DNA of 64,000 bases from Escherichia coli (lineage in GTDB: Bacteria; Pseudomonadota; Gammaproteobacteria; Enterobacterales; Enterobacteriaceae): NCBI RefSeq assembly GCF_041248615.1, contig NZ_CP158426.1; one strand, given 5' to 3'. Numbering within the stretch: position 1 is the stretch's first letter; each line of letters begins with the position of its first letter. Shown here in pieces: positions 60,659 through 64,000 of this stretch. The notes below the pieces were generated by a model. The model was not told the origin of the DNA, did no database searches, and worked only from the letters and a program-made list of their open reading frames with translations. Both the position numbers and the translations under genes were made by a program.

Positions 60659-60732
60659 GCGGGCGTAGTTCAATGGTAGAACGAGAGCTTCCCAAGCTCT
60701 ATACGAGGGTTCGATTCCCTTCGCCCGCTCCA
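60659..60732 (+). tRNA. glyU: tRNA-Gly (anticodon CCC)
   Basis: GCGGGCGTAGTTCAATGGTAGAACGAGAGCTTCCCAAGCTCTATACGAGGGTTCGATTCCCTTCGCCCGCTCCA; cloverleaf with anticodon loop CUUCCCAAG and encoded CCA. Confidence 0.95.
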
Positions 60733-60747
60733 GAATCTCCCCTGGTG

Positions 60748-60770
60748 GAGAAGACTAAAAAAGTCTTCTC
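60748..60770 (+). terminator. hairpin after glyU
   Basis: gagaagac-taaaaaa-gtcttctc perfect stem; no clear T tract. Confidence 0.5.
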
Positions 60771-61229
60771 TGTCAGCAACTTAAACAGTTACCTATTTAA
60801 TTTGCTTAGGAGTTCTACCATTGTGATCCGCCCTTAGTAACTGTCACGTTAAGTTACACGGTGAGATGACAGTATAACCTAACGTTGGCGGCAGTTGCAC
60901 CTCTCACACCGCGATAGCACAACGTGAAGATAAAGCCCATCCTGGCATTGTAATGTCATCGACAGACTGAACACACGCATTTAAGCCCGATGTGCGGCCT
61001 TGTGGCTGCGTAAACAGGTTTATGGTGATATTGGTCCTTGCAAACCATATGCAAGCTCTATCAGCGTTTCAGCCACGCTCCCAACGGGTACACGGTTATC
61101 CTGATAAGGTGTGATCTTTCTGACAATCTGATGAAGTCGCTACGCTCCCGCTTGTTGCTGTATCACCAACGGGGCTTTATGGTTTCTATTGTCTATAATA
61201 ATCTCACAATTCCCCTGCATGAGGTTGAT

Positions 61230-61436
61230 ATGACTGTTAGCTACAAGATTACTTATGAGCATAGAGACGGTGATCAAATTAGAATGGAAGAGGTTTTATT
61301 CCATTCAGAGCATGAACCAACAAAAGATGAAATTCATGATGCAGTAAGAAAAGATACTGTGAGATTTAATTCTCCATCTAATGGAGTAACGGCTGTTTCA
61401 GGGTTTAAAGTGATTTCGGTTGTCCCTGTTCCATGA
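61230..61436 (+). CDS. hypothetical small protein (68 aa)
   Basis: ATG preceded by gagg SD; the longer 132-aa version of ORF 61038..61436 has no convincing start context; convergent hairpin at the 3' end. Confidence 0.35.
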   Translation: MTVSYKITYEHRDGDQIRMEEVLFHSEHEPTKDEIHDAVRKDTVRFNSPSNGVTAVSGFKVISVVPVP

Positions 61437-61447
61437 ATGGTTATAGA

Positions 61448-61464
61448 AGGGGCTGGAAGCCCCT
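61448..61464. terminator. hairpin between the convergent small ORF and lipoprotein gene
   Basis: aggggct-gga-agcccct. Confidence 0.5.
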
Positions 61465-61469
61465 AATTA

Positions 61470-61790
61470 TTACTTCTTAATATCGCCAGTGCATTGATAT
61501 TCGATAGTCACAAGTGTTTGCATACAACCAGATGAAGAAGGTTGTGAACATTGAGAAGTGAATCCACCAAAAGGCTCGGCTCCTGAATATCCCCAAGCGG
61601 CACAACGCGCTTTGGCTGCATTCATGCCTTGTTGTGGATCTACAACAGGACTTTCAAACATACCGTAAGAATAACTCATCCTAACTGTGCCGTCTGATTT
61701 GCTTCCACCAGTTGGAACGAGTTGTTTTTTTGTTGCACATCCAGAAATAATCAATGTTGAAGCAAGTAACAGCATTAAACTTTTGCGCAT
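61470..61790 (-). CDS. cysteine-rich predicted lipoprotein (106 aa)
   Basis: signal peptide with lipobox LIISGC; four further Cys in the mature part; no family recognised. Confidence 0.6.
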   Translation of the reverse strand: MRKSLMLLLASTLIISGCATKKQLVPTGGSKSDGTVRMSYSYGMFESPVVDPQQGMNAAKARCAAWGYSGAEPFGGFTSQCSQPSSSGCMQTLVTIEYQCTGDIKK

Positions 61791-62442
61791 GTAAATAATC
61801 CCAAGAGATAATGGTTATGTATTGATTTAAAGCGTTTTTAGATTAATGCATTAACTTAGCAAAATTAAGTCTTTTCTGATTGTTTGCAGAGTAAAAATGA
61901 GTTGCTTTCGAAATTATTTCGGATGTTTATTGTATTACGGTTTTTCAAACCGTCTAACTATTGTCGCTATTGAATGGGCAATAATAGCAAGAGGATTCAT
62001 TTCGTCATTGGAGGCAACAAAAAGTCGGTAACTGATAGCTACAACGAATGAAGCAATAACGAGAAAGCGGATAGTGCTAAGATGTTTTGAAGATAAATGC
62101 ATAACGCCCCCTAAATGAATGTGAGGGGGATTAAATCATGCAAATTTGTTGTGTGCAATACTGGTAATTTATCCTAATAGTCTACTATTCACCTCAATCT
62201 ACGTCAACCAATATTTGATGTAGATTTGATTTTCTTTTAAAAACAATATTTTGCAATTTGTTGGGTTTTGGGGTTAGGTTGTTTTTTGGACGTTTCCATC
62301 AAGTGTAAAGATACGTTTAGCCTTCATAGTGAGTTCAGTTACTGTCTTTTTCTCTGAAATCGGCGCATACGTGATCATCGCTTAACGAGAAGAGCAGCGC
62401 CGTCAGGTCCATGCAGCGACAATTCTGAAATATCAGGAGGCA

Positions 62443-62994
62443 TTACGCTTCCTGCTCTTTCTTGATACGTTGCACCGTTTGTGTGCTGACACTGAAATCT
62501 TTTGCTACGCTCCGAATTGATCCACCATTCGCGAGAGCGGCAGCAATTCCCGCTCGATCAATTGCTTTTCCATTACCACGTTTTGCTATACGTCCAGCGG
62601 CCTTAGCTGCGGCGATCCCCTCACGCTGGCGCTCAAGCATCATTTCACGTTCCATTTGTGCCACTGCTGCAAGCACTGTGAGCATCATATTCCCTGCGGG
62701 AGAGTTCTTCCCTGTCTTAAAGTCTTCTTTATGGAAATGCACAGACACGCCGCGCTTTGTTAATTGCTCAACCGTTGCCAGTAGGTCGGCTGTATTACGG
62801 CAAAGTCGATCAATACTGTGAACATGCAAAACATCACCTTCCCGCACATAGTTCATCATTGCCTCAAACTGTGGGCGCTGGGTATTCTTGCCTGACGCTT
62901 TATCTTCAAAGACTTTATCAAGAGCTACTCCAGCTAATTGACGGTCTGTGTTTTGTTGCACAGTCGATACCCTAATGTATCCAATATTAGCCAT
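62443..62994 (-). CDS. serine recombinase, resolvase/invertase family (183 aa)
   Basis: N-terminal catalytic motif GYIRVSTVQQNTDRQ with the active-site Ser, FEDKASG, DRLCR, and a C-terminal HTH (GGSIRSVAKDFSVSTQTVQRI). Confidence 0.85.
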   Translation of the reverse strand: MANIGYIRVSTVQQNTDRQLAGVALDKVFEDKASGKNTQRPQFEAMMNYVREGDVLHVHSIDRLCRNTADLLATVEQLTKRGVSVHFHKEDFKTGKNSPAGNMMLTVLAAVAQMEREMMLERQREGIAAAKAAGRIAKRGNGKAIDRAGIAAALANGGSIRSVAKDFSVSTQTVQRIKKEQEA

Positions 62995-63019
62995 TTTCTT
63001 TATTCCTTCTGTGTTGATT

Positions 63020-63130
63020 TGTGTGTAGTGATTATTGATCGTGTTGATTAGGTGTGTAAAGGACTTTTTTCACTACGAAATTCGAAGGTTTTTAGTGTGG
63101 TGATTTAGCCTGCTTTATCACTACACGTCT
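63020..63130. promoter_or_regulatory. structured inverted-repeat region upstream of the recombinase gene (candidate res-like / autoregulatory site)
   Basis: 10-bp perfect inverted repeat gtgtagtgat (63023-63032) / atcactacac (63117-63126), internal cactac/gtagtg motifs, and a central cgaaattcg palindrome (63076-63084). Confidence 0.4.
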
Positions 63131-63516
63131 TGCATGAGAATCATGTAGTTACATTTTGGTAAAATTAGCAAGCTATTAAATAGTGTGTTTATTTTGAAAA
63201 AATAATTTTTTGTTGCATTAAAGGAAACTTGTTCAATAAATGATAGAACGTTTATTGAGCAACAATTTTGCAGTGATGCGCTATATGCCGCATTACATAA
63301 GGCTTTGCTGATGATAATGTAAAAGTGAAGAAAGCTAACATTGCTCTTTTAAGCTACTTTTCATTGAATTTTTAGTATGGAATTACATAGGGATAAACTA
63401 TGAATATTCTATGATTTACACGAGATATTCTTGCTGTTTAATTCCGGCTTTGGAGATCAGGCATTCGCAAGAATACGCTAACGCGTTGCCTGAAAAGCCA
63501 TTGCACATAATAGAGG

Positions 63517-63835
63517 TGAGCGTATAGCGAACTATCAATGTGATCATTGCACGAATGATAATGAGTGGATATAGATTCTATATATCGTTAGATTGTAGTT
63601 TGATAGTTAATGTGTAATGTAGATTGTATGAGCGTATAGCGAATGTTAGTTAGATCAACAACAAACTAACCTTTAAATCTCTTTTATCTTCTCATAGATA
63701 TGGCTATGCGTAGCAACCGAAGGTTAGCCAATCATCTCTATGCAGCCGTAAGGCTGTTTTGCATGTAATAGTTGTTTGTTGTTGTTAGACAGTTACCAAT
63801 TTATAGATCAGAGATAGATGTGAGCGTTGAGCGAT
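63517..63835 (+). repeat. iteron-like direct repeats (3 copies)
   Basis: tgagcgtatagcgaa at 63517-63531 and 63629-63643 (exact), degenerate tgagcgttgagcgat at 63821-63835. Confidence 0.6.
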
Positions 63836-63924
63836 ACACTAATCATAACAACATCTTCTTACTTTTTAGTTAGTTGTTAGTAGGTTATTGTTATGCGCGC
63901 TATTAGCGCATGTATAAAGGTATC

Positions 63925-63999
63925 ATTTTTATCTAAAGGGCTTTAGACATTTTTGATACCTTTTTCATCTCTAAAAAAGTGTAATTTTTATCTAAAGGG
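63925..63999 (+). repeat. short tandem direct repeats atttttatctaaaggg
   Basis: exact 16-mer at 63925-63940 and 63984-63999, with a degenerate copy tttttcatctctaaaaaa between them. Confidence 0.6.
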
Positions 64000-64000
64000 G

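Follow-up and report, generated by a model that had tools for sequence, protein, structure and literature searches.

We analysed a small serine recombinase gene, together with the DNA immediately upstream of it, in a 64,000-nucleotide stretch of an Escherichia coli genome (assembly GCF_041248615.1, contig NZ_CP158426.1), which we refer to as the window. The gene and 118 bp of upstream DNA (63009-63126) probably constitute a self-repressing res/resolvase cassette, whose role would be to resolve multimers of the episomal form of the mobile element that carries it and which survives in this genome as an orphan relic. The protein family, the catalytic residues, the architecture and conservation of the upstream site, its single copy and its genomic context are shown directly.

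The protein, which begins with MANIGYIRVSTVQQ, is a small serine recombinase of the resolvase/invertase family. A first-pass annotation, made from the letters of the sequence, had described a 183-amino-acid (aa) open reading frame (ORF) with a catalytic domain and a C-terminal helix-turn-helix (HTH). A Pfam profile search recovered the catalytic domain (Resolvase PF00239, E 9.8e-39, residues 4-135), and the motifs IRVST, VSTVQQ, EDKASG and AVAQMERE are all found. The HTH is matched weakly by HTH_23 (E 6.8e-5, residues 144-180), and the alignment to Tn3 resolvase extends through the DNA-binding domain to residue 183, although the profile originally proposed for it, HTH_7 (PF02796), reached only E 0.042. 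Residues S10, R8, R63 and R66 align with S10, R8, R68 and R71 of gamma-delta/Tn3 resolvase and are invariant across 12 clade members. A single substitution at a variable position, K80E, separates the protein from its copy in an intact element of an O26:H11 strain. RefSeq labels the ORF 'recombinase family protein' (WP_115720992.1), and in NCBIfam no family matched it at its curated cut-off. A role in anti-phage defence was rejected since neither the recombinase nor the genes directly beside it in the source strain had a PADLOC match.

In full-length comparisons with PDB entries the protein scored 99 bits with Tn3 resolvase (5cy1, E 2e-27), 99 bits with gamma-delta resolvase (2gm4, 1zr2 and 1gdt, E from 3e-27 up to 2e-26), 91 bits with Gin invertase (E 1e-24) and 69 bits with Sin (2r0q, E 5e-18). 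By these scores it appears roughly equidistant from resolvases and invertases. The earlier placement of the protein closer to resolvases than to Hin/Gin is therefore marginal by sequence, and its support comes mainly from the site architecture described below. The protein does not cluster with the Pin/Gin invertases, and its phage matches are all below 60% identity.

The upstream DNA is almost certainly the res-like, autoregulatory binding region of the recombinase, to judge from its sequence organisation. Six 10-bp half-sites resembling GTGTRGTGAT make up three putative sub-sites within 118 bp (Table 1), and their orientations, read with the gene to the right, are -> <- -> <- <- <-. The exact motif occurs three times within 104 bp of this DNA versus once elsewhere in 43 kb, and copies of the cactac/gtagtg motifs noticed in the first pass are present. 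The perfect 10-bp inverted repeat reported at the same time (GTGTAGTGAT at 63023-63032 and ATCACTACAC at 63117-63126) is real. Of 5000 dinucleotide shuffles of the 136 bp upstream of the gene, 8 gave a perfect inverted repeat of at least 10 bp (P ~0.0016). However, the reported repeat is not one dyad but the outer arm of putative site I paired with one half of putative site III. The cgaaattcg palindrome was likewise found at 63076-63084, but it falls in the spacer that separates site I from site II, and homologues do not conserve it, so that it is probably incidental. The length (~17-18 bp) and A/T richness of that spacer, and not its sequence or palindrome, are kept in the closest homologues (L017 and L009), and the spacer could be a bend or a host-factor site.

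Table 1 Features of the recombinase cassette and its surroundings. Positions are those of the window.
Feature	Position	Strand	Sequence or content	Remarks
Small serine recombinase gene	62443..62994	-	183 aa, intact	Catalytic Ser10, Arg8, Arg63, Arg66; C-terminal HTH
Putative accessory site III	63009..63032		Half-sites CTGTGTTGAT (63009-63018) and GTGTAGTGAT (63023-63032); with the gene to the right (63032-63009), ATCACTACAC-ACAA-ATCAACACAG	Tandem (direct) half-sites, directly downstream of the -10 element
Predicted sigma-70-like promoter of the recombinase gene	63031..63060	-	-35 TTTACA (63060-63055), -10 AATAAT (63036-63031)	18-nt spacer
Putative accessory site II	63040..63076		Half-sites CGTGTTGAT (63040-63048) and TCACTAC (63070-63076)	Inverted; 21-bp spacer with the -35 hexamer
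A/T-rich spacer between sites I and II	63077..63094		18 bp	Holds most of the cgaaattcg palindrome
Putative res site I, likely crossover site	63095..63126		GTGTGGTGAT-TTAGCCTGCTTT-ATCACTACAC; with the gene to the right (63126-63095), GTGTAGTGAT-AAAGCAGGCTAA-ATCACCACAC	Inverted 10-bp half-sites, 12-bp spacer
Rest of the conserved cassette upstream of site I	63127..63235			Conservation with other E. coli copies
tRNA-Gly(CCC), glyU	60659..60732	+	3' end = attL of the carrier element	ARAGORN
Remnant of the integrated phage-like element	60733..64000, running past the window end			RefSeq annotation, source record and intact O26 copy

The site I dyad is single-copy in both the 64-kb window and the 43-kb O26 locus when up to 3 mismatches are allowed (0.01 expected by chance), and its spacer motif is also unique within the element. 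No orphan copy of res was found in a search of E. coli genomes. A consensus scan placed the predicted promoter, with 10 of 12 matches, inside sites II and III, and the equivalent places in homologues are occupied by TTGACA or TTTACA and by TATAAT or CATAAT. Occupancy of these two sites should, for that reason, repress the recombinase gene. Between the window and five further E. coli copies, identity is 94.6-99.2% over the 240 bp that precede the ATG and 94.9-98.6% over the gene itself, whereas the next 180 bp reach only 77-78%. The cassette is modular and is made up of the gene and these ~240 bp, which are as conserved as the coding sequence.

In order to compare the site among relatives, homologues were taken from genomes and metagenomes and their upstream regions were compared side by side. 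The layout and spacing of the three sub-sites recur upstream of recombinases that are 58-81% identical to the one in the window. The same orientation pattern is found in L017 (an Enterobacteriaceae isolate, 68% aa identity), in L009 (a 4.66-kb Salmonella plasmid, 68%), in L018 and L019 (63-64%) and in L005, L015, L016 and L020 (60-81%). Across homologues, half-site k-mers turn up repeatedly around positions -130, -82 and -37/-25 relative to the ATG. All 8 aligned homologues have a dyad of 32-33 bp equivalent to site I, and its distance to the ATG is the same as in the window. The arrangement of site II is also present in L017 (GTGTAGTGAT...TTGACA...ATCACTACAT) and L009, and the string ATCAnnACAn-ACAA-ATCAnnACA ahead of the start codon, which covers site III, is shared by the window, L017, L009, L018 and L019. 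The half-site sequence, on the other hand, changes with the C-terminal HTH. Proteins whose HTH reads ...STQTVQRIKKE go with GT(A/G)GTGA, those with ...STRTVMNIKAE go with GTTGTAA, those with ...STNTISRIKKE go with GTAGCGA, and further groups have GTATTCA half-sites. This co-variation is the strongest evidence short of experiment that the repeats would be the recombinase's own binding sites. The first-pass expectation of a res-like or autoregulatory site upstream of the gene thus gained weight from a layout conserved down to ~58% identity, from half-sites that track the HTH and from the promoter predicted inside the array.

The cassette shares with Tn3 and gamma-delta a protein of the same family and size, a res directly upstream of the gene, three dimer-type sub-sites, a gene-distal crossover-type dyad and a promoter within the site. 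Site I of the Tn3 res is also distal to the recombinase gene, and the centres of gamma-delta sites I and II are 53 bp apart, compared to ~52 bp measured here. The Tn3 res spans 114 bp and holds three dimer-binding sites (PMC9943657), against 118 bp in the window. The differences are that the identity is low (99 bits), that the half-sites of site III are directly repeated and those of site II stand 21 bp apart, and that the cassette serves an integrative phage-like element or small plasmids, not a replicative transposon. As the first-pass annotation had held, this is not a Tn3-type transposon: no Tn3-family DDE transposase was found in the window, the source-record flank or the intact elements, the 38-bp terminal inverted repeats are absent, and the nearest transposase is that of an IS1 located 2 kb past the window end.

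The cassette also resembles the systems of Sin from staphylococcal plasmids and beta of pSM19035, which are plasmid-borne small serine resolvases for multimer resolution. The half-sites of the Sin accessory site are in direct repeat (PMC9943657), as are those of site III here. Sin and the present array also share an A/T-rich gap that separates the crossover site from its neighbouring sub-site, and in Sin this gap is the place of HU or IHF. However, Sin is the weaker protein match (2r0q, E 5e-18), and its res consists of two dimer sites and a host bending protein, whereas the array in the window has three recombinase-type sub-sites, one more than Sin, the additional one being inverted. The invertases Hin, Gin, Cin and Pin are similar in fold and length, in the 91-bit score of Gin, in the PHROG name and in their phage-related context. 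They differ in that the present system has neither paired crossover sites in inverted orientation nor a segment that could be inverted, and its orientation does not vary among ~290 genomes; a multi-half-site array lies upstream, and the gene is not beside a tail-fibre or flagellin gene.

Following the Tn3/gamma-delta and Sin paradigms (PMC9943657), we propose the following mechanism. Dimers of the recombinase would bind the three sub-sites through the GTGTRGTGAT-like half-sites, with the distal 32-bp dyad of site I as the place of strand cutting and exchange. Sites II and III would be architectural and would limit synapsis to pairs of res sites that are in direct repeat on the same supercoiled circle. 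The dimers bound at site I would then form an active tetramer in which Ser10 cuts, followed by rotation and religation, so that dimers and higher multimers of the replicating circular element would be split into monomers. Binding at sites II and III, around the promoter, would in turn repress the recombinase gene. A link to replication is suggested by the neighbours of the cassette, which are iterons, an AT-rich stretch and a Rep-like gene, and by its retention in a minimal 7.6-kb variant of the element.

Several points weigh against this proposal. The half-sites of site III are direct, not inverted, and site II is unusually wide; the sub-site boundaries are those read off the sequence. The best PHROG match of the protein is phrog_125, 'DNA invertase'. 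Residues R2, R32, K54 and E56 form the R (2-3') interface needed for the Tn3 synaptosome (PMC9943657), and their counterparts in the present protein are A2, K27, Y49 and R51, of which Y49 and R51 are invariant in the recombinase clade. Any synaptosome would accordingly not be a copy of that of Tn3, and the contacts between dimers must differ. In strain 3R the same element backbone lacks the recombinase, so that the cassette is dispensable and its benefit to the element unproven. Episomal replication of the element is a prediction, and DNA binding, crossover at site I, resolution activity and autorepression are attributed to the cassette by analogy with the systems above.

We considered three other explanations. 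It is very unlikely that the protein is an invertase like Hin, Gin and Pin or like Mpi, flipping for instance the 84 bp between the 10-bp repeats along with the promoter, or the segment with its own gene. The PHROG label, a Gin score nearly equal to that of Tn3 resolvase and a promoter bracketed by perfect inverted repeats would all suit such an enzyme. However, the two repeat arms sit in different sub-sites of the conserved six-half-site array, there is one site I-type dyad per element, and the recombinase gene is ~10 kb from the tail-fibre-like gene. The invertible promoter was ruled out when a query with the 84 bp inverted found no flipped form among the ~290 complete E. coli genomes in which the locus is present (best coverage 85%, in two pieces). 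In Rahnella, Enterobacter and L005 relatives the res and gene together are reversed relative to the tRNA and integrase. This, along with a TTTAGCCT/GTGTAAAG look-alike at ~62305-62340, downstream of the recombinase gene, had prompted the idea of a Hin-like inversion of a gene segment. It was dropped because no second dyad was found within 3 mismatches and because the reversal carries res along; the recombinases of these distant relatives are only ~80% identical, and the reversal of the whole cassette between them points to evolutionary rearrangement.

An integrase or fusion enzyme, by which the excised element or the small plasmids would enter other replicons at res-like sites, is also highly improbable. 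A copy of the element does reside on an IncF plasmid, and a 2-kb plasmid that carries only the recombinase is found within large plasmids. The chromosomal elements are nevertheless bounded by tRNA-derived repeats beside a tyrosine integrase, with res internal, and this ruled out the serine recombinase as their integrase. The junctions of the 2-kb unit are two IS26 copies and not res, and a multi-sub-site res is a device that prevents intermolecular fusion (PMC9943657). It is somewhat easier to imagine, though still unlikely, that the protein acts mainly as a DNA-binding regulator of its own promoter, and perhaps of origin-proximal promoters, or is a functionless leftover here. The promoter is embedded in the putative binding sites, some elements dispense with the cassette, and in this genome it has been orphaned by the IS1-associated loss of rep, int and attR. 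A regulator would not, however, account for catalytic residues that are all intact and invariant across the clade, nor for homologues that are the sole gene of 2-kb plasmids, where a pure regulator has no evident role, and three sub-sites with a symmetric promoter-distal dyad exceed the needs of repression. The res/resolvase cassette remains the reading that we prefer.

The plasmid-borne relatives bear on what such a cassette would do. Homologues with 64-80% identity, preceded by an upstream array of the same layout, sit on very small circular plasmids, and on replicons of this size the expected job of a resolvase is multimer resolution. In pDETEC86 (NZ_CP116175.1, L094; 1,985 bp) the recombinase (68% identity) is the sole annotated gene, with a similar half-site array ahead of it. 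A 4,663-bp Salmonella circle with a homologue was recovered as two circular permutations, and further homologues are on plasmids of 5.3-5.8 kb. The 2-kb plasmid unit is also present in large IncF/IncX and IncHI1 resistance plasmids between two copies of IS26, which points to IS26 cointegration and not to res-mediated insertion. The circular plasmids of ~2 kb from E. coli and Salmonella (L094, L097, L098) all have a recombinase of 68% identity as sole annotated gene and also carry 1.2 kb of GC-rich, repeat-laden non-coding DNA; no recognisable Rep gene was found on them, and Rfam gave no RNAI.

In the window, the cassette lies 1.7 kb downstream of glyU, the classical insertion point of the ETT2 island. 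The remnant of the element consists, in this order, of an 85-aa ORF, a YecR-like lipoprotein gene and a 55-aa hydrophobic ORF, followed by the cassette with res and recombinase and by the first part of a ~2.3-kb non-coding region. The intact counterpart in O26:H11 strain FWSEC0001 takes up ~13.5 kb between 22-bp direct repeats of the tRNA-Gly 3' end; the last 22 nt of the tRNA, TCGATTCCCTTCGCCCGCTCCA, are repeated 13.5 kb downstream beside the tyrosine integrase. Its order is tRNA-Gly, the 85-aa ORF, the YecR-like lipoprotein, the serine recombinase (-), 2.3 kb without ORFs and small ORFs, then a 221-aa Rep/O-like protein (weak PHROG 270/391 matches; Pfam HTH_36), a lambda-E-type major capsid protein (Pfam Phage_cap_E, 1e-11 over its full length; PHROG 29), a 613-aa protein that matches a tape-measure-labelled PHROG and has no Pfam match, and the tyrosine integrase. 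Its non-coding stretch holds two perfect 23-bp iterons followed by an AT-rich run, and relatives of Rahnella type and in Escherichia sp. have analogous blocks, which we read as a plasmid-like origin. The idea of a structured RNA in the 2.3-kb region was set aside, as an Rfam search (E <= 1) gave a match to the tRNA and none within that region. The elements integrate by means of their own tyrosine integrase, and with an iteron origin and a Rep-like initiator among their parts they should, once excised, be able to replicate as episomes.

A related element is at thrW in O104:H4, and another lies in the thiM TPP riboswitch of strain 789 as the minimal 7.6-kb form, which retains the recombinase, origin and rep. 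Out of 5,426 complete E. coli genomes, ~290 contain the recombinase together with its upstream region. The backbone is shared by Escherichia sp. E1V33, whose recombinase is 60% identical and whose half-sites differ. The cassette is thus optional cargo of integrative phage-like elements of Enterobacteriaceae of ~8-14 kb. In the source strain, an IS1 interrupts the first small ORF past the origin region, ~1 kb beyond the window end. This IS1B (L001 25007-25775, where the window coordinate = L001 + 40499) abuts a truncated winged-helix pseudogene, followed by yqeH. In association with IS1, the source strain has lost the rep and capsid genes, the integrase and attR, and with them the greater part of the ETT2 type III secretion island. 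The recombinase and res are both intact, and this loss has left them an orphan relic with nothing left to resolve.

Literature searches gave nothing specific on the element family or the recombinase clade. We entertain, tentatively and as less likely than not, the idea that an undescribed res architecture and an undescribed Enterobacteriaceae element family together represent a new kind of phage satellite with plasmid-like replication. The architecture in question combines an inverted crossover dyad, a wide inverted accessory dyad, a tandem accessory pair and a non-Tn3 R interface. The elements have a tyrosine integrase, an unusually large, repeat-rich non-coding origin region of 1.7-2.3 kb, a Rep-like initiator and a lambda-E-type capsid gene, with no recognisable portal or terminase, and such a satellite would be expected to have these genes. 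Chromosomal prophages normally need no resolvase; a plasmid-like satellite, if the idea is true, would need one.

Other observations were made in the element and next to it. The non-coding stretch (63127-64000 and on to ~L001 24860) is AT-rich with many short GC-rich dyads and repeats, among them TGAGCG(N3)AGCGA at 63517, 63629 and 63821. Its two 23-bp iterons (TTCCTACCTACCCAGGAAATGAG) and AT-rich run begin at about window-equivalent 64207, and a consensus promoter (TTGACA...TATTGT) precedes the first small ORF past it. The stretch is probably the origin and control region of the element. At 63913-64000, running to ~L001 23532, there are two tandem 59-bp units, each with a nested palindrome of ~48 bp (GGTATCA..TCTAAAG GG CTTTAGA..TGATACC; variant GTGTAA..TTACAC). 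The O26:H11 copy has a single hybrid unit whose left half comes from unit 1 and whose right half comes from unit 2. The two copies differ by a deletion or duplication of one unit, with the crossover at the unit centre. Recombination driven by the recombinase at these units was rejected, as they are without the half-site motif and slippage or homologous recombination is simpler. A block at 63226-63425 with (A/T)TTACA(C/T)AGG repeats (three copies here, five in L022) is conserved even where the element has another recombinase (E1V33, L022) or lacks one (strain 3R, L099), and it is found in ~70 more E. coli genomes than the recombinase.

Closer to glyU, the attL-proximal end contains, ~80 bp downstream of the tRNA gene, an inverted partial copy of the tRNA-Gly 5' half (60812-60833), whose 22 nt are 82% complementary to 60661-60682. 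An unannotated segment of 224 bp (60976-61199), just upstream of the 85-aa ORF and overlapping its start, recurs at ~90% identity in ~60 plasmids of Escherichia, Salmonella, Citrobacter, Enterobacter, Serratia, Morganella and others, always unannotated. It has no inverted termini, and a fold z-score of -0.6 left its interpretation as a folded single-strand element unsupported. The 55-aa hydrophobic ORF (61935-62102, -) is kept beside the cassette in the thrW and plasmid copies (hypothetical protein WP_000550450.1, ~52 aa) and might encode a small membrane peptide or toxin. In the O26:H11 element, the small ORF and Rep-like region (L002 24997-25490) share 167-260 bp at 90-96% identity with lytic phages of ~150 kb (among them Escherichia phages muut, inny, Mt1B1_P17 and PaulScherrer, and Justusliebigvirus VEcB), which hints at genetic exchange or a helper-satellite relationship. 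In the 7.6-kb variant of strain 789, the slot beside the recombinase (L013 13109-14834) contains a control-protein-like HTH and an HNH protein, the latter with a PADLOC match (1e-23) to type IV methyl-directed restriction enzymes, and the slot may be a hotspot for defence genes. A DUF4062 protein, a 263-aa protein of PHROG-19381 or a secreted protein of 183 aa is carried by other variants.

The cassette by itself is a routine stability module whose protein RefSeq had already labelled, and the less ordinary part is the element family with its large repeat-rich origin region. The cassette flags poorly annotated, plasmid-like integrative elements with a capsid gene at the glyU, thrW and thiM sites of several hundred E. 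coli genomes, including those of O26:H11 and O104:H4. The glyU island of the source strain is an IS1-eroded remnant from which most of ETT2 has also been lost. Moreover, the homologues offer natural res sites with at least four specificities on one conserved scaffold. These may be of use in engineering orthogonal small serine recombinases, and the co-varying sites could also serve the study of synaptosome assembly.

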